From contig CAZWKR010000006.1 of assembly GCA_964634215.1 (NCBI GenBank), forward strand, positions 79,607 through 143,606: DNA of 64,000 nt, in the 5' to 3' direction. The position numbers were made by a program, and so were the translations under genes. The notes below the pieces were generated by a model. The model was not told the origin of the DNA, did not search any database, and saw only the letters and a list, made by a program, of their open reading frames with translations. Source of the stretch: an uncultured bacterium (GTDB taxonomy: Bacteria; Fidelibacterota; Marinisomatia; Marinisomatales; JAHJCW01). Shown in pieces: positions 9,458-29,492 of the stretch (its first letter is position 1; the number at the start of each line of letters is the position of its first letter).

Positions 9458-9601
9458 TTATTTTTTAATCGGTTTTTTTACTTTACGAACACTGTTACTC
9501 TTGCAAGCTGGACATGCACGTTCCATAGGAATTTTACGGTCATACGGGCCGGTAAATTCATGTCCACAGCGCAAGCATTTAAAATCAACTATTTCAGCCA
9601 T
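9458..9601 (-). CDS. FmdB-family zinc-ribbon protein (47 aa)
   Basis: Below the ORF-track cutoff. Hand translation: MAEIVDFKCLRCGHEFTGPYDRKIPMERACPACKSNSVRKVKKPIKK, with a CxxC...CxxC pattern. Starts 16 nt after the hdrA stop on the same strand. Confidence 0.65.
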   Translation of the reverse strand: MAEIVDFKCLRCGHEFTGPYDRKIPMERACPACKSNSVRKVKKPIKK

Positions 9602-9617
9602 TATTTATTCTCAAATT

Positions 9618-12110
9618 TTATGCAGGCACACCTATCGCCGAATTATCGGATTTGGGTGTGATTTTTTTATTTTGTTTTTTTGCTCGTTTAGCTTCGGCTT
9701 TTTCTCGATCTTCTTTTAGAACCTTGATTGTGTGTTTAACTTCATTATCTGTGACATTTTTACGCATTTCATCAATATCTTTCATAGTTCGAGCCCACCT
9801 TTGTCCTTCAGCGGCACTTATCCATTCCATTTGTAAACGTTCTGGACGAATACCAAGTCTCTCCATTTTATCCCATAATTTTTCAACACGTTTTTGCGTC
9901 CAACGATTAGCATCAATGTAATGACAATCTGCAAAGTGACAGCCTGAGACAAGCACAATTGGTGCACCTTTTTCAAAGGCATGCAGTACAAAATCAGAAT
10001 CAACTCTACCACTGCACATCGTTCGGATAACCCTTTGAGATGTAGGATATTGCAATCTCGATAATCCTGCTAAATCAGCACCGGCGTATGAACACCAATT
10101 GCATGCAAATACTGTGACTTTATCCATTGGATTTTCATCTAAGATAGCATCAATCATAGTTGTGATTTGTGCATCCTCAAAATGTTTCATGGATAGTGCG
10201 TCAAAATTGCATTCTGCTGCACAAGTTCCGCATCCTTTACATAGAGCTTCTATCACTTCAGCAGGACTTCCGGCTTTTGCATCAGCTCCTTGAATAGCAT
10301 TGAACGGACAAACATTGGTGCAAATTCCGCAAGATGTACATAATTCGGTAAAGCATTCCGAGGTGATAGCTTCAATGTTTATCATATCCGAATTAAGCAA
10401 TACTTCTGCTCTAGCAACTGCGGCACTCGCTTGAGTTACACTGTCTTTTACATCTTTTGGAAATTCTGCGCAACCTGCAAAAAATACTCCACCTGTTGGT
10501 GCATCTACGGGTTTTAACTTTGGATGAGACTCCATAAAGAATCCATCTTCAGTTTTAGATAGAGTTAGCAGTTTTTGCACAGCTTCGGCATCACGTCTTG
10601 GAATAACTCCAACTGATAGAACTACCATATCAAAATTGTAATCTTTTACAGTATTTGCAACCGTGTCCTCTACAATTAGAGTGAGATTTTTTGTCTTTGG
10701 ATCCTCGAAGATCTCACCCGGTAGTCCTCGTATATATTGTACACCGGTTTTCTTACTTCTAATATATAAATCTTCAAATCCTTTTCCAAAAGCGCGAATA
10801 TCCATATAGAATACTGCAATTTCGGTATCCGGATAATGATCTTTTAACAATAAACTGTCCTTAACTGTATTCATGCAGCAAATATTACTACAATACGGAT
10901 TGCCGGTTTCTGAATGTGATCGTGAACCAACGCATTGAATGAAGGCAATCTTCTTGGGTACTTCTCTATCTGTTGGTCGGAAAAAATGTCCTTCCGTTGG
11001 ACCACCGGCAGAAATTAATCTTTCGAACTCCATGCTTGTGATGACATTTTCGTATTTGGTATAACCATATTCATCCATCTCGGTTGGATCGTAAACATCC
11101 ATTCCGGTAGCAACTATTACAGCACCAACATTGACTTCTATTATTTCATCCTTCATATCGAAATCGATACATTCTTTTTCACAAACATCCGCACATTTGC
11201 CGCATGCAATGGGATTATGTCCTAAACAATCATCATTATCTAAAATATAAACAGATGGAACTGCTTGGGGAAACGGCATATATATCGCTTTGCGAGATGA
11301 AAAACCCTGTTGGAATTCATCAGCTACAGCGACAGGGCAAACCTTTTCACATTCACCACACGCGTTGCAAACTGTTTCATCTACAAATCGTGCTTTTTTG
11401 CGAATTTTTACATTAAAATTACCGATATAACCGCTTACTTCTTCTACTTCGCTATATGTGTATAAATTAACATTGGGATGTCGACCGACATCCATCATTT
11501 TTGGTCCGAGTATTCATATGGAACAATCCATAGTGGGATAGGTCTTGTCTAATGTTGCCATTAGCCCACCAATGGATGCCTCCTTCTCAACCAAATTTAC
11601 TTTATAACCTGCATCTGCCAAATCAAGGGCGGACTGAATACCCGCCACACCACCGCCAATAACAAGAACTTCTTTGGTCATTGGTACTTTCGATTCTGTT
11701 TGCTCTTCCAATAATCTCGCTCTAGCGACCGATGACTTGACAATGTCTTTAGCTTTTTCAGTTGCACCATCATAATCATCTAAATGTACCCAACTGCAAT
11801 GCTCACGTATATTGGCCATTTCCATTAGATATGGATTTAATCCCGCCTCTTCAACACAATTGCGAAAAGTAGGTTCATGCATCCGGGGAGAGCAAGAGGC
11901 CACAACTACACGATTTAAATTGTGCTCTTTGATATATTTTTTTATTTCTTGTTGGCCGGGTTCTGCGCATGTATACTTATTTACAATTGAGCACACAACA
12001 TTAGGAAGTGTTTCTGCATGTTTAGCGACCTCTTGACAATCAAGCGATCCTGCAATATTACTTCCGCATTCGCAAACAAATACTCCTACACGTAAATCGT
12101 TTTCACTCAT
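9618..12110 (-). CDS. hdrA: HdrA-like flavoprotein fused to MvhD domain; selenocysteine-containing (in-frame UGA at 11514-11516)
   Basis: ORFs 11514..12110 and 9618..11498 share one frame (2493 nt). Read-through gives 'LDKTYPTMDCSI-U-ILGPKMMDVGRHPNV'. Also present: FAD motif 'VIGGGVAGIQSALDLA', an inserted ferredoxin 'CNACGECEKVCP', a C-terminal ferredoxin 'CTSCGICTNVCP'/'CKGCGTCAAEC', and MvhD 'FACNWCSYAGADLAG...MCSGRV...VSGCHFADCHY'. Confidence 0.8.
11476..11493 (-). promoter_or_regulatory. candidate bacterial SECIS hairpin for hdrA UGA
   Basis: Minus-strand RNA GGAUGUC-GGUC-GACAUCC: a perfect 7-bp stem with a GGUC loop, starting 20 nt 3' of the UGA. Confidence 0.6.
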
Positions 12111-12154
12111 TCGGTTATCCTGTCTTATCGACTATTAATAATATTAGCATTTAA

Positions 12155-13294
12155 TTATTCCATTCTCTCTAACACAACAGTAGAGATATCGCGAATATCC
12201 ATTTCATAATTATCTCTCACAACTTTATCTTTCATTGTACAAGTGAGATGGATATGACATTTGGGACATGCTACCGTTAAAATATCCGCTCCTGTTTCTT
12301 TTGCTTGTTTTAATCTTTCTTTTTGTATCCCTTTAGATGTGATATCACAATTCATCCAAGCACTCACACCGCAACATAGCGATTTTTTATCATGCTGCAT
12401 CATTTCATGAAAATGTTCACCGTCATTATGTTGTAAAACCTTGCGTGGTTCATCGTAAATACCCATATGGCGTCCTAGCCTACATGGGTCTTGAAATGTA
12501 ATATCTGTATCGGATTCTTTTAAATTAAGTTCATCAGTTGAGACCATATCAGCTAAAAACTGACTCATATGCATCAATTTTGGTTTTACCTTAAATCCAT
12601 GCTCAGGATATAAATTCATAAAGGCACTCATGCATTCGGCACAGGAAAATAAAATTGTTTTCGCGCCTCTTTTTTCAACTGATTCTATATTCTTTTCCGC
12701 GAGCATTTTAAAATTTTCCACATCACCATTCCATAAAAGGTCATGTCCACAACATCTCTCATCTGACATCACTACAGGAGTAACGCCAAGTTTGTTTAAA
12801 ATTTTAATGCTACTTTTTGCAGCATCAATTGTTGAAATAGCTAGATCATCAAAGAATACATCAAAATACGGGGCGCATCCTACATAGTATAATATGTCAC
12901 CATGATCACTTATCTTTAGATCATCAGTAATCCAATCGAGGCGATTTTGTTTAATATCTTTGGCAGTCATAGTTGTTTGTAGAAGTTCCATAGCCCCAGC
13001 GTGTGAGCATTTACCGTGAAAGCCGGAATCTTGTGCAGACGAACGAACAATCTGAGTTAGAGTACTATAGTCAATATTTGCCGGACAAACTGCATCACAA
13101 CGGCGACAAGTCAGGCAACTCCATAAATCATAATCGATATATAGAGAATCAAATTCATTGCGGATTGTTTTCGTTAACATTGAGCGAGGAGAGTACCGTT
13201 GGCTAAAAAGTGAAACAGGACAAACGGCAGTGCATTTTCCACATTCTAGACAACCATAGGCATTAGTGGCTTTAATTTGATCTACTAAATCCAT
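12155..13294 (-). CDS. HdrC/HdrB-like fusion (2x[4Fe-4S] + two CCG domains), HdrD-like
   Basis: 379 aa. 'CLECGKCTAVCP' and 'CLTCRRCDAVCP'. CCG motifs 'ERCCGHDL...FSCAEC' and 'DPCRLGRH...LCCGVSAW...ACPKCH'. Confidence 0.8.
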   Translation of the reverse strand: MDLVDQIKATNAYGCLECGKCTAVCPVSLFSQRYSPRSMLTKTIRNEFDSLYIDYDLWSCLTCRRCDAVCPANIDYSTLTQIVRSSAQDSGFHGKCSHAGAMELLQTTMTAKDIKQNRLDWITDDLKISDHGDILYYVGCAPYFDVFFDDLAISTIDAAKSSIKILNKLGVTPVVMSDERCCGHDLLWNGDVENFKMLAEKNIESVEKRGAKTILFSCAECMSAFMNLYPEHGFKVKPKLMHMSQFLADMVSTDELNLKESDTDITFQDPCRLGRHMGIYDEPRKVLQHNDGEHFHEMMQHDKKSLCCGVSAWMNCDITSKGIQKERLKQAKETGADILTVACPKCHIHLTCTMKDKVVRDNYEMDIRDISTVVLERME

Positions 13295-15606
13295 TATTTG
13301 AATTTCCTCGCATAGTTGTTAACCACTTCAACAAACTTATCAGTGTTTTTATCAGACACCGTGTCATACTCGATACGATTTTTGTCATATCCGAGCATGT
13401 GTGCCAATTGTTGTACTTTAGCATACGTTTCAGCAAATCGCTTTGCCCCAAACTCATAATGACATTCATCAGCGCTACATCCAACAACTAATACACCATC
13501 TGCACCTTCTTCAAGAGCACGTAAAAGGAAAGTCGATTCAATTCGTCCGGTACACATCGTTTGGATAAATATAAAATTTGTATTTTTGTATTTAGAAGTA
13601 TTTATATTTTCGAAATCAGTACCATTCCAATTACAGGAATAAACAATAATGTTCCGTTTTTTTGAATCAATATTTTTAAATTTGTACGATAACCATTCGG
13701 ACGTATATCTACACGGTTGAATTGCGCTCGATGGGCAAAATGTTACACACGTTCCGCACCCACGACATAATTCCGGATCAATTTGTGATACATATACCTC
13801 ATCATTTTTCTGTACTAATTGGCAGGCATCATATTCGCAAACGGTTACGCAATCTCCGCACCCACGACATAACTCTTCTTTTACATTTGGAATGTAACTA
13901 TTTAATTCGATTTGTACATCTTTGCCGGTAGCTGCTTTTAATGTCCCCAGCAAACTTCCGTTTCTTAAATCCTCACTTTTGAAATCGGGCGGTAAGCGTA
14001 ATACATAATCGTTTTGTCCGTTTGTACCATGTATAACTGATAAACCCTTATCACAATCAGACACACAAATAAAACATTCTCCGCACGGACCGCAACGTAA
14101 GCAACGTTGAGCTTCTGCAATTGCAGTTGCCTCATCAAACCCGTATTCAACTTCCTTGAAGCTGTTTTTCCTTTTTGAAACTTCTTGCATCGGTGTAGGT
14201 GTGCGCTTTATTTTGGGCTGATGCTTTAAATCGACTTTAACTTCAGTTTCAATTGGATTGGTTTTGTTATCGGACTGTTCAAGTGCCTCGCCATTAATAA
14301 ATCTTTCGATTGATGTAGCGGTTATGTGTCCTTGAGCAATAGCATCAATAACAGTATTTGGTCCTGTTACTGCATCACCACCGGCAAAAACGCCGGGGAT
14401 ATTAGTTGCCATAGTATTTTCATCGGCTACAAATGTTTGCCAGCGGGAAATGTCAATATTATGATCTTTTGGTAAAAATGACAGATCGGGCTCTTGACTG
14501 ATAGCAGGTATAATTATATCCGCTTCAATAATAAATTCAGAATTTTTGATAGGGATTGGTCTCGCACGACCGCTTTCATCGGGTTTGCCAAGTTTCATTT
14601 TTGTACATTCCAAACCGACAATTCTACCATTTTTACCAACTATTTTTGCCGGTGCTGCAAGATAATGTATTTTAATACCTTCATTTTCCGCTTCATCGAT
14701 TTCTTCATCCTCTGCCGGCATTTCTTGCCGTGTGCGACGGTAAACGATATTTACTTCAGAACCCAAACGCAAGGCAGTCCTGGCAGCATCAATAGCAGAA
14801 TTACCACCACCAATTACAATTACTTTTTCTCCCGGTTTTTTTGGTTTACCAAGATTTACTTCGCGTAAAAATGTTACGGCATCTAAAAATTCTTTATATT
14901 TATCTTCACCGGGAATCCCCAGTTTTTTACCAATATGAGCACCAATTGCTAAATAAACCGCATCAAATTCCTTTAATAATTTGTTATAATCCTGTTTGCC
15001 GGATATCTTTTTATTGGTTTTTATTTTCACGCCTAAATTGCGAATATAATCAATTTCGGTTTTTAGAATATCGCGTGGCATTCTATATGAAGGGATTCCG
15101 GCAATCAGCATTCCGCCAGGTTCAGATAATTCCTCAAAAATTGTAACATTGAAACCGCTTTTAACGAGATCATGTGCAGCAGTTAATCCGGCTGGACCTG
15201 AACCAATAACGGCAATTTTTTCTTTTCGAGTTCCTGCAGTTTTTTGTGGTTTAGGTATGGGATGATCTAATTCGTAATCAGCAACAAATCTTTTTAAGGA
15301 GCGAATGGCAACAGGAGCATCTATTTGATTTCGATTACATAAGGATTCGCATGGATGAGTACAAACCCTTCCGCAAATACCCGGCAATGGATTTTTTTCT
15401 CTCACAACATGTAAAGCTTCATGAAATTTACCAGCCGCGATCAATGAGACATATGCTTTAACATTAACACCTGCAGGGCAGGCTTCCATACAGGGAGATG
15501 GGTCAACTTTTCCTATTGGATACTGGACATTTGGTTTGTCGGAAAACGTAATAGTATTTTCATGTTTCCTGATAAAATTTTTAAATGTGTTGTCTGAAGT
15601 TCCCAT
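13294..15606 (-). CDS. GltD/NfnB/SudA-like NAD(P)H:FAD oxidoreductase fused to ferredoxin and MvhD domains
   Basis: 770 aa. 'CMEACPAG...CGRVCTHPCE', 'IAVIGSGPAGLTAAHDL', 'VIVIGGGNSAIDAAR', 'VFAGGDAVTGP'. Then 'CRGCGDCVTVCE' and 'CRGCGTCVTFCP'. C-terminal MvhD 'YSCNWNG...MCTGRIE...VVGCSADECHY'. Confidence 0.8.
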   Translation of the reverse strand: MGTSDNTFKNFIRKHENTITFSDKPNVQYPIGKVDPSPCMEACPAGVNVKAYVSLIAAGKFHEALHVVREKNPLPGICGRVCTHPCESLCNRNQIDAPVAIRSLKRFVADYELDHPIPKPQKTAGTRKEKIAVIGSGPAGLTAAHDLVKSGFNVTIFEELSEPGGMLIAGIPSYRMPRDILKTEIDYIRNLGVKIKTNKKISGKQDYNKLLKEFDAVYLAIGAHIGKKLGIPGEDKYKEFLDAVTFLREVNLGKPKKPGEKVIVIGGGNSAIDAARTALRLGSEVNIVYRRTRQEMPAEDEEIDEAENEGIKIHYLAAPAKIVGKNGRIVGLECTKMKLGKPDESGRARPIPIKNSEFIIEADIIIPAISQEPDLSFLPKDHNIDISRWQTFVADENTMATNIPGVFAGGDAVTGPNTVIDAIAQGHITATSIERFINGEALEQSDNKTNPIETEVKVDLKHQPKIKRTPTPMQEVSKRKNSFKEVEYGFDEATAIAEAQRCLRCGPCGECFICVSDCDKGLSVIHGTNGQNDYVLRLPPDFKSEDLRNGSLLGTLKAATGKDVQIELNSYIPNVKEELCRGCGDCVTVCEYDACQLVQKNDEVYVSQIDPELCRGCGTCVTFCPSSAIQPCRYTSEWLSYKFKNIDSKKRNIIVYSCNWNGTDFENINTSKYKNTNFIFIQTMCTGRIESTFLLRALEEGADGVLVVGCSADECHYEFGAKRFAETYAKVQQLAHMLGYDKNRIEYDTVSDKNTDKFVEVVNNYARKFK

Positions 15607-15626
15607 AAAATGAATTTTGATTTATT

Positions 15627-16163
15627 TTAATTTTTCAGTGATTTTCCGAAGTTGTAACCTTTTTCTAGTGCTTCAATATTGGTATCTAAAAATCGGTCAG
15701 GAACTGACCCAGGTAATGCCTTTTTCATTGCGTCAAGACTAACAACATCTGTCATTGCGGTAAAGAATCCAACCATTACAACGTTCGCAAAAATGCGATT
15801 TCCCATTTCTTCAGCAATTCGGGTAGCGGGTACTGAGTACAGTTTAACATCCTTGCGAACCGTTTTGGGTTTTACTAGGTCAGAGTCTGTGAGAACTATG
15901 CTGCCTTTTACAGGGTCACCGATAAATTTTTCATAAGCTTCTTGTGACATCGACACTAAAATTTGCGGTGCAACAATATATGGATATAAAACCTTATCGT
16001 TATCAATTACAACCTGTGCAGAGCACGCTCCACCGCGAGCTTCTGGTCCAAAACTTTGTGTTAGTGTAGCAAATTTACTATCAAATATTGAGGCTGCTTT
16101 TCCAATCAGCATTCCTGATTTTATAATTCCCTGTCCTCCAAAACCTGAAAATCTAATATCCAT
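15627..16163 (-). CDS. 2-oxoacid:ferredoxin oxidoreductase gamma subunit
   Basis: 178 aa. 'IRFSGFGGQGIIKSG' and 'GPEARGGA', typical of OFOR gamma. Confidence 0.85.
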   Translation of the reverse strand: MDIRFSGFGGQGIIKSGMLIGKAASIFDSKFATLTQSFGPEARGGACSAQVVIDNDKVLYPYIVAPQILVSMSQEAYEKFIGDPVKGSIVLTDSDLVKPKTVRKDVKLYSVPATRIAEEMGNRIFANVVMVGFFTAMTDVVSLDAMKKALPGSVPDRFLDTNIEALEKGYNFGKSLKN

Positions 16164-17068
16164 TATTTGGTTCCTTTATATGGAATGTATTTGTCACCTA
16201 ACTTGTTTTTTAAGAATTTGTCTCGGCTTGTATAGAAATCGGGTTTGTCCTTATCAACAAATTTTCCAACAATGATCTCTTTTTGATAATCGATGTCAAT
16301 ATCTTTTGTATTTGCGCCATGCTGTATTTTTGCTGTATCATGATAAAATCGCATTAGATCAAGCCCCGATCCAAGACGGTTTCTCCTGGCATAAAGAGTT
16401 GGGCATGGAGCGATAACTTCAATAAATGAAAATCCTGGTTTCACGAGTGCCTCTGCAATCGATTTTGTCGCTCTGCGAATATGTAATGATGTCCAACGCG
16501 CTACATAAACAGCTCCACACGATTCTGCTAAATATGGTAAATTAAATGGAAATTCGTAAGCGCCAAAAGGTGCTGTGGAAGCGTTAGCTTCTTGAGGTGT
16601 CGTAGGACCTGCTTGGCCACCGGTCATTGCGTAATTAAAATTGTTTATACAAATAATAGTTAGATTCATATTTCTACGAGCTGCATGGATAAAATGATTT
16701 CCTCCAATTGCAGCTATATCACCATCTCCGCTTATTACCGCAACTGTCATCTCGGGATTTCCTAGAGATAATCCGGTTGCAAATGGTATTGCTCTACCAT
16801 GAGTAGAATGAAATGAATCTAGTCTTAAATATCCCGCTGCTCTACCCGAACAACCAATTCCAGAAACTACACCAACTTTATCACGATCGAGACCCGATTT
16901 TTGCAAACCGGCTATAAAAGCTGTTAAAACAGTTCCAATACCACAAGTTGAACACCAAATATGCGGCAGACGTTCCGTTCGCAAATAGTCTTGCATCGGA
17001 TGTTTCATTGGTTCAGGAGATTTTGGAATTTTTAAAGTACTTGTAGTTGGTGCTGTAATCTCGCTCAT
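16163..17068 (-). CDS. 2-oxoacid:ferredoxin oxidoreductase beta subunit (TPP-binding)
   Basis: 301 aa. Cys ligands 'WCSTCGIG' and 'GIGCSGR'. TPP motif 'SGDGDIAAIGGNH...NNFNYAMTGGQ'. Confidence 0.9.
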   Translation of the reverse strand: MSEITAPTTSTLKIPKSPEPMKHPMQDYLRTERLPHIWCSTCGIGTVLTAFIAGLQKSGLDRDKVGVVSGIGCSGRAAGYLRLDSFHSTHGRAIPFATGLSLGNPEMTVAVISGDGDIAAIGGNHFIHAARRNMNLTIICINNFNYAMTGGQAGPTTPQEANASTAPFGAYEFPFNLPYLAESCGAVYVARWTSLHIRRATKSIAEALVKPGFSFIEVIAPCPTLYARRNRLGSGLDLMRFYHDTAKIQHGANTKDIDIDYQKEIIVGKFVDKDKPDFYTSRDKFLKNKLGDKYIPYKGTK

Positions 17069-18225
17069 TTTACACCTTTCTTAATTGCTTTTAAAATATC
17101 GTTAGGATCGTGTACCCAACCACCTGCGTGTGGTACATGAATTGTTTTTGTCTTTCCAGCCACACATCTTTCGACTTCAAGAGAAATCTGACCAAGGTTG
17201 ATTTCAGGAACAACAAATGCTTTTATTTTGCTGGCAAGTTTGCTAATTAATTTTTCAGGAAATGGCCATACAACTATTAGGCGAATTGTACCAACTTTTA
17301 TTCCGGCTGCTCGAGCATCTTGTACGGCTTTTAACGCGACACGAGATGTTATTCCATACGAAATAACTATTACTTCAGCCCCATCAACTTGATCTTCTTC
17401 TAGTAGTCGTATTTTTTCTTCATTTTTAAGAATTTTATCAACTATATGTCTAACATTCTTATCTTGGGCCTCTGAATTGAGCGTTGGATATCCTCTTTCA
17501 TCATGTGTTAAGCCCGTTAGATGTATATTATAACCTTCACCAGCTTTTATCATCGGAGCGATTTCTCCTTTACCATTGAAATTAAATGGTCGATAATCTT
17601 CTTTTTTACCATTATAATATTTACGTGGTACAATTTCGATTTTGTCGGCATCAGGTATGACAACTTTTTCTGTCATATGTCCAACACATTCATCCATCAT
17701 GAACATAACTGGGACACGCCAAATCTCAGATAAGTTGAATGCTGTAATTGTGAGATCAAAACATTCTTGAGGAGAATTTGGGGACAGGGCAATGACTTCA
17801 TAGTCACCATGAGAACCCCAACGGGCTTGCATCATATCGGCTTGAGCGGTAAGTGTGGGTAGTCCGGTTGATGGACCTCCGCGTTGAACATTAACTATAA
17901 CACAGGGCGTTTCAAGCATTACCGCAAGTCCGATGTTTTCCATCATTAGTGAAAATCCAGGACCTGATGTAACTGTCATTACTTTTGGACCTCCCCATGC
18001 GGCTCCAATTATTGCAGCCATAGATGCAATCTCGTCTTCCATTTGAATAAACATTCCGCCGACTAATGGGAAACGTTCCGCAATTCTTTCTGCTACTTCT
18101 GTTGATGGCGTTATGGGATATCCTGCTAAAAATCTACATCCTGCCGCTATTGCACCTTCGCCACAAGCGTGATCACCATCAATATAGTGATTCCCCGTTG
18201 CTACTCCAACTGGATCTGCTTTCAT
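17065..18225 (-). CDS. 2-oxoacid:ferredoxin oxidoreductase alpha subunit
   Basis: 386 aa. 'AGYPITPSTE' and 'VNVQRGGPSTGLPT'. Confidence 0.9.
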   Translation of the reverse strand: MKADPVGVATGNHYIDGDHACGEGAIAAGCRFLAGYPITPSTEVAERIAERFPLVGGMFIQMEDEIASMAAIIGAAWGGPKVMTVTSGPGFSLMMENIGLAVMLETPCVIVNVQRGGPSTGLPTLTAQADMMQARWGSHGDYEVIALSPNSPQECFDLTITAFNLSEIWRVPVMFMMDECVGHMTEKVVIPDADKIEIVPRKYYNGKKEDYRPFNFNGKGEIAPMIKAGEGYNIHLTGLTHDERGYPTLNSEAQDKNVRHIVDKILKNEEKIRLLEEDQVDGAEVIVISYGITSRVALKAVQDARAAGIKVGTIRLIVVWPFPEKLISKLASKIKAFVVPEINLGQISLEVERCVAGKTKTIHVPHAGGWVHDPNDILKAIKKGVK

Positions 18226-18527
18226 GATTTTGCCTCTTTTTTTAGAACATCGTCAATGTCGGGATGGGTCGATTTTCCTGCAACTACAAATATCGAAAAA
18301 TCAGGACAAATCATTTCGCAAAGTGTGCAGTTAACGCAAGCTCCTTGTTTGATAACTACTGGGTAATGATATCCTTTCCGATTGAAATCTTTAGATAATG
18401 CTAAAACATCTTTTGGGCAATATTCGATGCAGAATTCACAACCCTTGCACTGTTCAATATCGATATGCACATCGCCGTGTGGTACTTCAATAGTATTTAT
18501 ATCTAATGGGGCGCGCCAGTAACTCAT
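18222..18527 (-). CDS. 2-oxoacid:ferredoxin oxidoreductase delta subunit (2x[4Fe-4S] ferredoxin)
   Basis: 101 aa. 'CKGCEFCIEYCP' and 'CVNCTLCEMICP'. The gene order D-A-B-C matches Helicobacter oorDABC (2-oxoglutarate-type). Confidence 0.85.
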   Translation of the reverse strand: MSYWRAPLDINTIEVPHGDVHIDIEQCKGCEFCIEYCPKDVLALSKDFNRKGYHYPVVIKQGACVNCTLCEMICPDFSIFVVAGKSTHPDIDDVLKKEAKS

Positions 18528-21201: not shown

Positions 21202-23499
21202 ATGAAAAGATCATTCCTGAAATACGCCGTTTTATTGTTTTCAATTCTTTTTATTATATCTAACTACACCTGTAAAAAATCTATTACAGAATCTACACTA
21301 GAAGGAACAAAAGTAATTGCTTCTGATGGCGCTATTCTTATAAGCGATGACGGACTACTCACACTGACAATAGCACCCAATGCCTTAGATGATGACACTT
21401 ACATTAATATTGAAGTAGTTGTGGAAGCAGATTATCCCGCTGGTATAGATAGTATGTACATCGTCGGTGAGGTATATGATTTTCAACCGGATGGTTTGGA
21501 ATTGAATATCCCTGCTATCGTTGAGATTGAGATGCCCGAAAATGAAGTAACAAGTATTGTCGAAGACGGAGAGTATCCATTTATTAGTGGTTTTTCACTT
21601 ACATCTGAGGGAGTTTACAGTCTTATCGATAGTTCAACCGTAATTTATAATATTTCAGATAGTACAGCTAAATATTCGGGTCAAATTGAACATTTCAGTT
21701 ACTATTGTAAGACAGATAGGGTATTTGATTATTTTTCAGGTAGTTTAGATAAACCTCCAACTGAACTTGGTATTATATCTATAGAAATTAACTTAGGTCC
21801 ATTTGAATCTTCTGTTGATATTCCGCAGCAGGTTACTGCTAAGGTCAAAAATTGGACAAGTGTTGCGATGCAATTTAATTTTCTAAATCACGTTGGTGTT
21901 TCACCTGTGCAATGGCAACCTTTGTTTGGTTCTGTGTCAGTGATAGCTTCAGGGGGGGCTGCACCATATACTCATCCTAGCAAATGGACATGTAAGGTCG
22001 CAGGTGGAGACATGATATTTATGCAGAGTGGGGCAACGTGGGAAAATCCATCACTAAATCCATCTGGAAATCGGAATTATCAAAAAGCGATGATGTTTTT
22101 CGAACATAAAGTCAAATGTATTGCAGATGATGGTGACGATGAAGATTCTGACGGAGATGGAGTACTTGACGGAGATGACAATTGTCCGTATATAGCAAAT
22201 CCTCCTCAACAAGATTTCGATGGTGATGGACATGGAGATGCCTGCGATAATTGTCCATTGGAAGAAAATCCTGATCAGCTAGATGGTGATTTTGATGAAT
22301 ATGGGGATACCTGCGATAATTGTCCCGAGGATTATAATCCTGACCAAGTAGATAGCGATAATGATGGTATAGGTGATGTTTGTGATGAAGATGATAGCGA
22401 AGATTCGGATGGTGATGGTATTTTGGATATTAATGACAATTGTCCTAATATAGCAAATCCCCCTCAACAAGATTTTGATGGTGATGGAGTTGGCGATGCC
22501 TGCGACAATTGTCCGTTAGAAGAGAATTCCCCTCAACAAGATTTCGATGGTGATGGACATGGCGATGCCTGCGATAATTGTTCATTGGAAGAGAATCCTG
22601 ATCAAACAGATGGTGATGATGATGGAATAGGTGATATTTGTGATAATTGCCCCGATGATTCCAATGCTGATCAAGCAGATGCAGATGGTAATGGAATCGG
22701 TGATGCATGTGATGGCGCTACTAACTGTGGTGATGATAATTTAATAGAATTAATGCAGCCCTATTATAACTTTTTTGGATTTGAACCATGCAGTGCAGTG
22801 GAACCCAGGATACCCTATGTTTCTATTCCAAATACCAAGACTTCCGGTGATCCATTTTATACGGCTAATGATCAAACAACTACATATGGTTGGGGATATG
22901 TGCCGCAAGTGATTGATCATACTCTATGGGGTCCTGGGGATCCGGCGGCTCTACCTTTTAATAATGGACCACCAGCTGAGATTGGTGTTTACTCGTGGGA
23001 TGGTACCCAGTATGCACAAAAGTTGTTGTCTACTCAGAATCCATATACTGAAGAAAATTGGGTGATATTCTTTAATGTAATGGAACAAGACATTCCACCT
23101 GCTGATTCTGATAATCAATATCAATATGGATTTGTTTTTGATAGGGACGGTGATACTAATAATAATTATCAACCGCACCCTGATTATGCTAATGATTTCT
23201 TCAAAGATACTGATTTTTGGATAGTAGGTTATTATCATCCCGATTATGGATGGGGTTTAACAGTTAATGATGCGACAAATGGAGTTATTACAACAGCGAC
23301 TTCAGCGGCAAAGATGCTTATTTCGGGCAATACGATCATAGTATTTATTCCTCGAAGTGAGTTCCCCGCACAAAATATTGGATATAGGGTAACAGCCTTT
23401 GGGCATGATGGTTCATGGGCGGATGACGCTAATGCCGGCGCTGATACCCAACCTTCCGTAGCTGATGGATTGAAATGGGTAGATATTGGACCTGAATAA
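21202..23499 (+). CDS. lipoprotein with thrombospondin type-3 (TSP3) Ca-binding repeats
   Basis: 765 aa. Signal and lipobox-like 'FIISNYTC'. Shine-Dalgarno AAGGAGG about 8 nt upstream. About 9 copies of 'DNCPxxxNxxQxDxDxDGxGDxCD'. Confidence 0.8.
22135..22720 (+). repeat. in-frame tandem TSP3 repeat DNA
   Basis: Repeated ~70-110 nt units, e.g. 'aatcctcctcaacaagatttcgatggtgatggacatggagatgcctgcgataattgtcc' recurring with few changes. Confidence 0.8.
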
Positions 23500-28445: not shown

Positions 28446-29492
28446 TTATACATAAATCCCAAATTTATCTTTTTCTACAATCTCCCCAATAACTACCGCT
28501 TTTATTTCTGATAATTCATTGAATTTAGTGATATACTTTTCTGCTTTTTCGGTAGGAATGGAAATAAGCAATCCGCCGGAAGTCTGAGCATCTGCTAGTA
28601 ATAGTTTATCTATGTCAGTCGGGTGCTCACCAAACTGAACTTTGTCTTTAACAAATTTCAAATTCCGCTTAGTTCCGCCCGGTACAATACCCTTTTCCGC
28701 AAGTTCTTTTACCGAAGGCAAAAATGGTAGTGCATGGTAGTCAATTTTGGCGGAAACACAGCTTGCTTCACACATTTCCGATAAATGCCCTAGCAAACCA
28801 AAACCGGTTACATCGGTGGCGGAATTCACGCCGATTATTGTCATTATATCAGCAGCAAATTTGTTAAGCGTAGCCATAGATTCAGCCGATTTTGCCATTG
28901 CAATTTTATCAGCAATTCCGCGTTTTACGGCTGTAGCAATTATTCCTGTACCAAGCGGTTTTGTGAGTATTAATTTATCGCCAGCTTGAGCGTTGCTGTT
29001 GGTTATCAAATTATCTTCTTCAACTTCACCGGTTACAACTAATCCGTATTTTGGCTCGGGGTCGTCAATGCTATGCCCACCAACAATTGAAATACCGGCT
29101 TCATCAGCTTTGTCAATGCCACCCTGTAAAATCTTTGATAAGTCCGATTTCGGTAAAGTATTTATCGGAAAACCGATTATGTTTAATGCAAATAGTGGAG
29201 TAGCTCCCATCGCATAAATATCCGATAAAGAATTAGCAGCTGCAATTTGACCAAATGTATACGGATCATCATCGATTGGCGTGAAAAAATCAACAGTTTG
29301 AACGAGCAATCTACCATTGCTTAGGCGTACCACTGCTGCGTCATCTTTATCATCATATCCGACGAGGATGCGGTCATCTTTTTTCGATTTTAGCTTACCC
29401 AAAACTTGAGCAAGGTCCTCAGGACCTATTTTACAAGCTCAACCGGAGCCGTGGGTAAGTGTCGTTAGTCGTATTTTTTCTTTTTTGTCCAT
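28446..29492 (-). CDS. selD: selenide, water dikinase SelD, selenocysteine-containing (UGA at 29439-29441)
   Basis: The track ORF starts at an internal TTG (29402). Upstream and in frame: ATG(29490-29492) MDKKEKIRLTTLTHGSG-U-ACKIGPEDLAQVLGKLKS.... This matches the SelD 'RLT....G(C/U)GCK' N-terminus. Also 'DFFTPIDDDPYTFGQIAAANSLSDIYAMGA'. Confidence 0.85.
29413..29427 (-). promoter_or_regulatory. candidate SECIS hairpin for selD UGA
   Basis: Minus-strand RNA AGGUCC-UGA-GGACCU begins 11 nt 3' of the UGA. A possible lower stem CUUG...CAAG flanks it. Confidence 0.45.

Follow-up and report, generated by a model that had tools for sequence, protein, structure and literature searches.

HdrA has been recognised as a selenoprotein family since 2006 or earlier, and forms that contain selenocysteine (Sec) are described from archaea, Deltaproteobacteria and Clostridia (PMC1794560; PMC13188914). 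A recent review gives the motif of the family as CxxU and cites NF040770 as its model (PMC13188914). In Methanococcus maripaludis, the residue has been placed in a structure: chain A of Protein Data Bank entry 9SFI has a non-standard residue, stored as X, in the sequence DCAM-X-ILAPKM, and the accompanying paper names it selenocysteine Sec197, or U197 (PMC13518236). In the HdrABC–MvhAGD complex of Methanothermococcus thermolithotrophicus (5ODC), the same column is a cysteine (Cys), Cys197, in the sequence DCSIC197ILAPKM. Here, we describe an hdrA–mvhD gene from an uncultured bacterium of the Marinisomatia (Fidelibacterota), found in a 64,000-nt stretch of contig CAZWKR010000006.1 that we refer to as the window. 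The gene is interrupted by an in-frame UGA that very probably encodes Sec. An earlier reading of the window, made from its letters alone and hereafter called the original prediction, had proposed a single gene with a UGA-encoded Sec and a Sec insertion sequence (SECIS) hairpin similar to that of Escherichia coli fdhF.

The complete hdrA–mvhD gene, of the HdrA2 type, occupies positions 9618..12110 of the window, on the minus strand, as do all window features described below unless stated otherwise. Mechanically, it appears as two open reading frames (ORFs), an N-terminal one of 198 residues (11514..12110) and a C-terminal one of 626 residues (9618..11498). An exact-sequence look-up showed that public gene calls store the two halves as distinct proteins, and other cluster members of the 626-residue protein carry the JGI/IMG name “heterodisulfide reductase subunit A”. 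Both ORFs share one frame of 2493 nt, or 831 codons, in which the sole internal stop is the TGA at 11514-11516. The ATG at 11498, which starts the second ORF, is 15 nt past this TGA. Read through, the frame encodes 830 residues followed by a TAA stop, with LDKTYPTMDCSI immediately before the TGA and ILGPKMMDVGRHPNV immediately after it. The coordinates, the shared frame and the local translation given in the original prediction are all correct.

Searches with the read-through product were made with Cys put in for the stop (830 residues). Pfam identified a Pyr_redox_2/FAD domain, with the Rossmann signature for flavin adenine dinucleotide (FAD) or NAD, several 4Fe-4S ferredoxin domains of the Fer4 family, and a C-terminal FlpD/MvhD domain (residues 665-781, 9768..10118; PF02662, E = 1.7e-45) that is an all-Cys version. 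The protein thus has the HdrA domain set, with an N-terminal cluster domain, an FAD domain and both an inserted and a C-terminal ferredoxin domain, as well as the fused MvhD. Residues 6-656 align continuously with HdrA of 5ODC (5odc_A), with no gap across the TGA (E = 5e-247), and residues 664-779 align with MvhD of the same complex (5odc_D, E = 2e-39). The solved homologues are about 60% identical to the read-through product. The NCBIfam model NF040770 (HdrA2) has a curated cut-off of 1100 bits. The fused protein scores 1187.5 bits and covers profile positions 1-775 of 777, whereas the separate halves score 311 bits (198 residues) and 846 bits (626 residues), both below the cut-off. The continuous alignment to 5ODC, together with a family threshold that is passed by the fusion alone, indicates that the two ORFs are halves of one HdrA–MvhD gene of 830 residues, as the original prediction had it.

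How does this protein compare with those already described? The best solved match is HdrA of 5ODC, all domains of which are aligned. Unlike the window protein, 5ODC HdrA has Cys rather than Sec, lacks a fused MvhD and is partnered by a [NiFe]-hydrogenase; no genes for such partners lie near the window gene. HdrA of M. maripaludis (9SFI/9T1S; PMC13518236) has the same four-domain HdrA architecture, with Sec at the aligned column of C-x-x-U. In that structure, however, MvhD/VhuD is a separate subunit. The substrate there is the heterodisulfide of coenzyme M and coenzyme B (CoM-S-S-CoB), which a Marinimicrobia bacterium would not be expected to make. The two also differ in the placement of the recoding signal: in the archaeon, the SECIS lies in the untranslated region and not, as in the window hdrA, in the coding sequence. 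The match to NF040770 is full-length and above cut-off, but the name of that model, “CoB-CoM heterodisulfide reductase HdrA2”, implies CoB-CoM chemistry, and the neighbours of the window gene encode HdrD-like, GltD/NfnB-like and 2-oxoacid:ferredoxin oxidoreductase proteins, not HdrB2C2. The Sec-HdrA genes of Deltaproteobacteria and Clostridia are similar in having an in-frame UGA and a bacterial-type SECIS, and the organisms that carry them often have a SelD that is itself a selenoprotein (PMC1794560). Those genes belong to other phyla and to glpC-hdrA-frhD-frhG-frhA hydrogenase operons, some of them duplicated or split.

The UGA is codon 199 of the gene and falls exactly on the Cys/Sec column of the family. 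The window reads DCSI-UGA-IL, and in an alignment with homologues the UGA is in register with Cys197 of 5ODC and Sec197 of 9SFI. The resulting CxxU motif, Cys196-Ser-Ile-Sec199, lies at 11514..11525. Hence, the original prediction placed the UGA correctly at the conserved Cys position, and its statement that HdrA is an established selenoprotein family agrees with the literature cited above. Two minor observations concern the same site. The Ile codon directly before the UGA (11517-11519) is ATA in 82 of 84 homologous copies, with a third-position entropy of 0.16, where Ile has three codons to choose from; this preference suggests that the sequence just 5ʹ of the Sec codon is under a context constraint. 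In addition, two Logan contigs from the same population (L081 and L083, run SRR8146440) meet within about 30 nt of the UGA/SECIS region, where one ends and the other begins with an overlap (window ~11502-11531). These breaks suggest a branch of the assembly graph at an extremely conserved stretch.

Downstream of the UGA, we found the perfect hairpin that had been predicted. GGAUGUC-GGUC-GACAUCC (11476..11493), a 7-bp stem with a GGUC tetraloop, starts exactly 20 nt after the UGA and, at +24 to +41, is the minimum free energy (MFE) structure of the 60 nt that follow the stop. The description of this hairpin as “fdhF-like” holds in part. E. coli fdhF also has a hairpin within the coding region 3ʹ of its UGA, and its apical loop in the MFE structure is GGUC, as the original prediction stated; the fdhF segment (TGACACGGCCCATCGGTTGCAGGTCTGCACC…) is 100% identical within annotated fdhF in 5419 of 5426 complete E. 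coli genomes. The likeness does not extend beyond the loop. In fdhF, the stem contains a bulged U, and its lower helix is long and reaches back to the UGA, whereas the hdrA stem is a perfect 7 bp with no bulged U and no conserved lower helix. The stem starts about 11 nt after the UGA in fdhF and 20 nt after it in hdrA, and the loop, counted from the U of UGA, starts at nucleotide 22 and nucleotide 31, respectively. Published surveys of bacterial SECIS elements allow the loop to lie roughly 16-37 nt from the UGA, a range that the spacing in hdrA would fit.

The strongest evidence for a function of the hairpin comes from other genomes. A scan of one genome per species yielded 80 loci with close relatives of the protein, at 66-92% amino-acid identity. 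The best-matching loci are from Marinimicrobia/Neomarinimicrobiota/Fidelibacterota genomes, which places the window in this lineage, and the others are from Zixibacteria, KSB1, Calditrichota, Ignavibacteria, WOR-3, Eisenbacteria, Krumholzibacteriota and Anaerolineae. At the aligned codon, 78 of the 80 loci have TGA, and the remaining two, both from Chloroflexi/Dehalococcoidia (L072 and L073), have TGC. Both halves of the gene are under purifying selection in these loci. With the window copy, the 78 primary matches and five flanking paralogues, 84 TGA copies were available for comparison, and the distance from the UGA to the hairpin is identical in all 84, with no gaps.

Within the hairpin, synonymous sites are almost frozen. 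Across the 84 copies, the five codons GAT GTC GGT CGR CAT (+25 to +39), which form the greater part of the hairpin, show entropies of 0, 0, 0, 0.62 and 0 bits at their third positions, as compared to 1.06-1.97 bits for flanking codons. These flanking codons encode equally conserved residues (Ile, Leu, Gly, Pro and Lys before the hairpin, Pro and later codons after it). Just one third position varies inside the hairpin, and it forms the 3ʹ side of the only stem pair that varies. Among 82 distinct rows, this pair is U-A in 69, U-G in eight and C-G in five (70, eight and five in the raw tally over 83 locus copies); C-A never occurs, and no row is unpaired. The stem is 99.7% paired in the 84-sequence alignment, but only 21-57% paired if the 3ʹ arm is slid by 1-3 columns. 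The observed covariation score was reached by none of 500 column shuffles, in an alignment of phylogenetically related sequences where only one pair changes on both sides. The two TGC loci retain the peptide MMDVGRHP. However, their codons differ (GAC GTG GGA CGG/CGC CAC/CAT), the fold differs, and there is no equivalent hairpin. Together, the frozen synonymous sites, the covariation and the loss of the hairpin in the Cys forms are what one would expect if the hairpin were a functional RNA element linked to the UGA.

Two further observations were made in this comparison set. Within the Chloroflexi, the Dehalococcoidia-type loci L072 and L073 have TGC without the hairpin, whereas the Anaerolineae loci L063, L069 and L079 have TGA and the hairpin, a distribution that resembles a switch between Sec and Cys inside a single phylum. 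In five loci, a second hdrA paralogue lies a few kb upstream (L052:190-534, L064:~1296, L075:~630, L076:~297 and L080:~1058), with TGA in the identical column and an identical hairpin. These pairs resemble the tandem hdrA arrangements reported in Deltaproteobacteria.

Could the UGA be a real stop, such that the gene is naturally split into a 198-residue fragment and a 626-residue protein that starts at the ATG at 11498? Both ORFs exist, gene callers list them apart, a start codon is available 15 nt after the TGA, and split as well as fused hdrA arrangements have been described in Deltaproteobacteria by Zhang et al. (PMC1794560). Nonetheless, the break would fall inside the FAD-binding, thioredoxin-reductase-like domain, exactly on the conserved Cys/Sec residue and with no gap relative to solved HdrA, and neither resulting half would reach the NF040770 cut-off. 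Moreover, 83 further hdrA copies keep TGA at this codon, not TAA or TAG, along with the constrained hairpin, and the Cys-type hdrA genes of L072 and L073 are uninterrupted. We consider a natural split very unlikely.

A second UGA-interrupted gene in the window bears on how the hdrA codon is read. The selD gene (selenophosphate synthetase; 28446..29492) has an in-frame TGA at 29439-29441 that corresponds to residue 18 (Sec18), which we take to be equivalent to Cys17 of E. coli SelD. The part of the gene after the TGA matches TIGR00476 with E = 1.4e-111, and the 54 N-terminal residues, which include HGSG-U-ACKIGP, match the start of the same model. The original prediction, that selD in the window is also UGA-encoded, is confirmed on both sides of the codon. 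Among metagenomic relatives of this selD, 66 of 70 motif matches, including three close relatives, have TGA at the Sec column; Sec-SelD is thus common among these relatives, as judged from their codons. Two candidate hairpins follow the selD UGA: AGGUCC-UGA-GGACCU spans +15 to +29, and the second, at +30 to +46, has a GUU loop. Sec-selD relatives that are more distant often have GCGCAG-GUC-CUGCGC at the position of the second hairpin. The three close relatives are too few to define a selD SECIS.

Not all of our data favour Sec at the hdrA UGA, and the following results count against it. First, the Cys-type negative controls for the hairpin number only two. Second, the folding energy of the hdrA hairpin is unremarkable relative to shuffled sequences (z = -0.05 and -0.54). 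As a positive control we took the SECIS of E. coli fdhF, which was non-significant too (z = -0.94); hence, this test is uninformative for elements this small, and we dropped it as a criterion. Third, the covariance-model search that the original prediction had proposed as a check was negative: Rfam reported no SECIS family on the whole window at the gathering score or on 11380-11580 at E ≤ 10. This says little, because Rfam has no general model for a hairpin of this type. The only match in the SECIS search, AniS on the opposite strand, is attributable to chance. Fourth, the rest of the Sec machinery is missing from the DNA that we searched. ARAGORN and Rfam gave no tRNA-Sec in the 64-kb window, and none lies in 934 kb of hdrA loci; when E. 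coli SelA and SelB were used as tblastn queries, neither selA nor selB was detected in the window or in the same 934 kb; NCBIfam models found no selA or selB among 23 window ORFs; and neither gene lies beside selD in the metagenomic selD relatives scanned. The only tRNA-Sec among the loci fetched (anticodon TCA; L094:891-989) is on an unrelated metagenomic contig, about 100 nt upstream of a Cys-type selD. Fifth, three SAR406 and two KSB1 single-cell genomes appear under “orphan SelD” in a survey from 2016, with no other selenium-trait or selenoprotein genes detected (PMC5029168, Table 1). The SAR406 and KSB1 genomes behind that listing are incomplete, and a later study of KSB1 reported selA, selB and selD (PMC9012183). 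KSB1 is among the phyla with TGA-type hdrA in our comparison loci. Given the two UGA genes with downstream hairpins found here, the listing may reflect incomplete genomes and split gene calls.

The missing machinery and the listing of SAR406 genomes with SelD only would also be compatible with near-cognate suppression that inserts Cys, Trp or Gly at the UGA, or with a reassigned genetic code. Reassignment conflicts with the use of TGA elsewhere in the window: of 56 long ORFs, five terminate in TGA, which shows that UGA has kept its function as a stop and that the genome is not UGA-recoded. A six-frame scan for in-frame TGAs with long open flanks found five, of which two are inside recognisable genes, hdrA and selD, and both of these are at positions classically occupied by Sec. 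Simple suppression gives no role to a hairpin that is conserved at a constant distance of 20 nt. Furthermore, the window contains selD, whose product makes the selenium donor and which is UGA-encoded as well, and selA, selB and selD are reported in KSB1, a phylum with the same type of hdrA. Read-through without Sec is highly improbable. Finally, although short-read Logan contigs of the population break within about 30 nt of the site, the idea that the TGA is an error of sequencing or assembly, or a recent mutation that turned hdrA into a pseudogene, is effectively refuted by the comparative data. The same TGA is found in 78 other genomes, assembled independently, where both halves of the gene are under purifying selection, and in public gene calls of the same sequence. 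Even combined, the three alternatives retain only a small share of the probability. In our estimate, the explanation that combines a single HdrA–MvhD gene, a UGA at codon 199 read as Sec and an 18-nt hairpin that would act as the SECIS has a probability of about 0.9.

How would Sec be incorporated and what might it do? By the established bacterial mechanism, SelD would provide selenophosphate and SelA would convert Ser-tRNA(Sec) to Sec-tRNA(Sec). A complex of SelB, GTP and Sec-tRNA(Sec) would then bind the GGUC-loop hairpin while the ribosome pauses at the UGA 20 nt upstream, and Sec would go in at residue 199 in place of termination. Our data show the continuity of the gene, the position of the UGA in the Sec column, the constraint on the hairpin at the RNA level and the UGA in selD, whereas Sec insertion, SelB binding and the physiological reaction of HdrA–MvhD are inferred. 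In HdrA, Cys197 has been described as providing the fourth ligand for the N-terminal [4Fe-4S] cluster in the partner protomer, in the ferredoxin-reducing branch (PMC9012536). In a 2026 cryo-electron microscopy study, density joins a Cys and Sec197 between cluster A3 and FAD; a selenylsulfide relay was proposed, although the authors call the role unresolved (PMC13518236). By homology to these residues, Sec199 would be positioned between the bifurcating FAD and the N-terminal [4Fe-4S] cluster. It could serve either as a ligand of the partner protomer's cluster or as half of a Cys–Sec redox relay.

The genes next to hdrA suggest which proteins HdrA–MvhD works with. The neighbour at 12155..13294 encodes an HdrD/GlpC-like Fe-S protein with two 4Fe-4S motifs and two CCG domains (PF02754 CCG, E = 3.8e-27). 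This protein is below the cut-off of every named family, is the sole CCG-domain partner nearby, and accompanies hdrA in 64 of the 80 loci; it is probably the partner subunit of HdrA–MvhD. The next gene (13294..15606) encodes a flavoprotein that binds NAD(P), resembles GltD/NfnB and has ferredoxin and MvhD domains fused to it, as identified by Pfam and by NF009410 (547.9 bits, cut-off 516). It is syntenic in 29 loci, and its product is probably the electron-input subunit. Directly upstream (15627..18527) are the genes for a four-subunit 2-oxoacid:ferredoxin oxidoreductase (Pfam POR, TPP_enzyme_C, POR_N and Fer4), syntenic in 22-31 loci. Directly downstream of hdrA (9458..9601) is a gene for a 47-residue zinc-ribbon protein. 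Its match to PF09723 (E = 1.7e-7, 31.6 bits) is below the Pfam gathering score of 34.4, and the gene is kept beside hdrA in 61 loci. The zinc ribbon is followed by citrate synthase and malate dehydrogenase, both in the window and in the relatives closest to it.

The order oxidoreductase, GltD-like, HdrD-like, HdrA, zinc ribbon (9458-18527) recurs in about 29 of the 80 loci, including loci from WOR-3, Krumholzibacteriota and Chloroflexi; loci recorded with the conserved order are L001-L033, L051, L057, L071-L073 and L078. We propose that, in this non-methanogen, the most likely partners of HdrA–MvhD are the HdrD-like CCG protein and the GltD/NfnB-like–MvhD flavoprotein, with which it would form a flavin-based bifurcating or confurcating complex. 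Such a complex would exchange electrons with ferredoxin, which the upstream 2-oxoacid:ferredoxin oxidoreductase also uses, and could link NAD(P)H and ferredoxin to a high-potential acceptor. We found neither a biochemical characterisation of a cluster of these five components, with Sec-HdrA, nor a description of its gene order in the literature searched. A more speculative possibility, which we regard as rather unlikely, is that the cluster specifies a new bifurcating or confurcating enzyme joining ferredoxin of the tricarboxylic acid cycle, NAD(P)H and a thiol/disulfide or other high-potential acceptor, and that SAR406 and KSB1 are ordinary users of selenoproteins.

For HdrA, our analysis amounts to a correction of annotation. 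The motif, the Sec column and the recoding mechanism were already known for this family, and nothing described here alters knowledge of the family or of the mechanism. The correction has consequences for other genomes nonetheless. The split calls of this gene and of many orthologues in uncultured phyla hide a complete HdrA2-type bifurcating flavoprotein, and they lead to undercounting of selenoproteins in Marinimicrobia and related candidate phyla. Papers on Marinimicrobia mention hdrABC, but full-text searches found none that mentions its selenocysteine. The presence of UGA-type hdrA together with UGA-encoded selD is indicative of Sec use in these lineages, which bears on the “orphan” SelD listing of SAR406 and KSB1. 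For metagenomes, a TGA followed after 20 nt by GGATGYCGGTCGRCATCC, the near-invariant 18-nt hairpin, provides a signature for re-annotation of hdrA. What is of interest, modestly, is the breadth of the Sec form and of this near-invariant 18-nt SECIS across many candidate phyla, along with the conserved cluster.

The remaining observations concern other parts of the window. Other candidates for an in-frame TGA with a downstream hairpin were rejected, as they lie on the opposite strand to real genes, are out of frame with them or fall in gaps just upstream of gene starts. A 765-residue repeat protein on the plus strand (21202-23499), which has no in-frame TGA, has sub-threshold matches to MtsC and to an “Omp28-related selenoprotein” domain (100 bits, cut-off 200). 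These matches arise through short repeats, and probably reflect only repeats that the proteins share.

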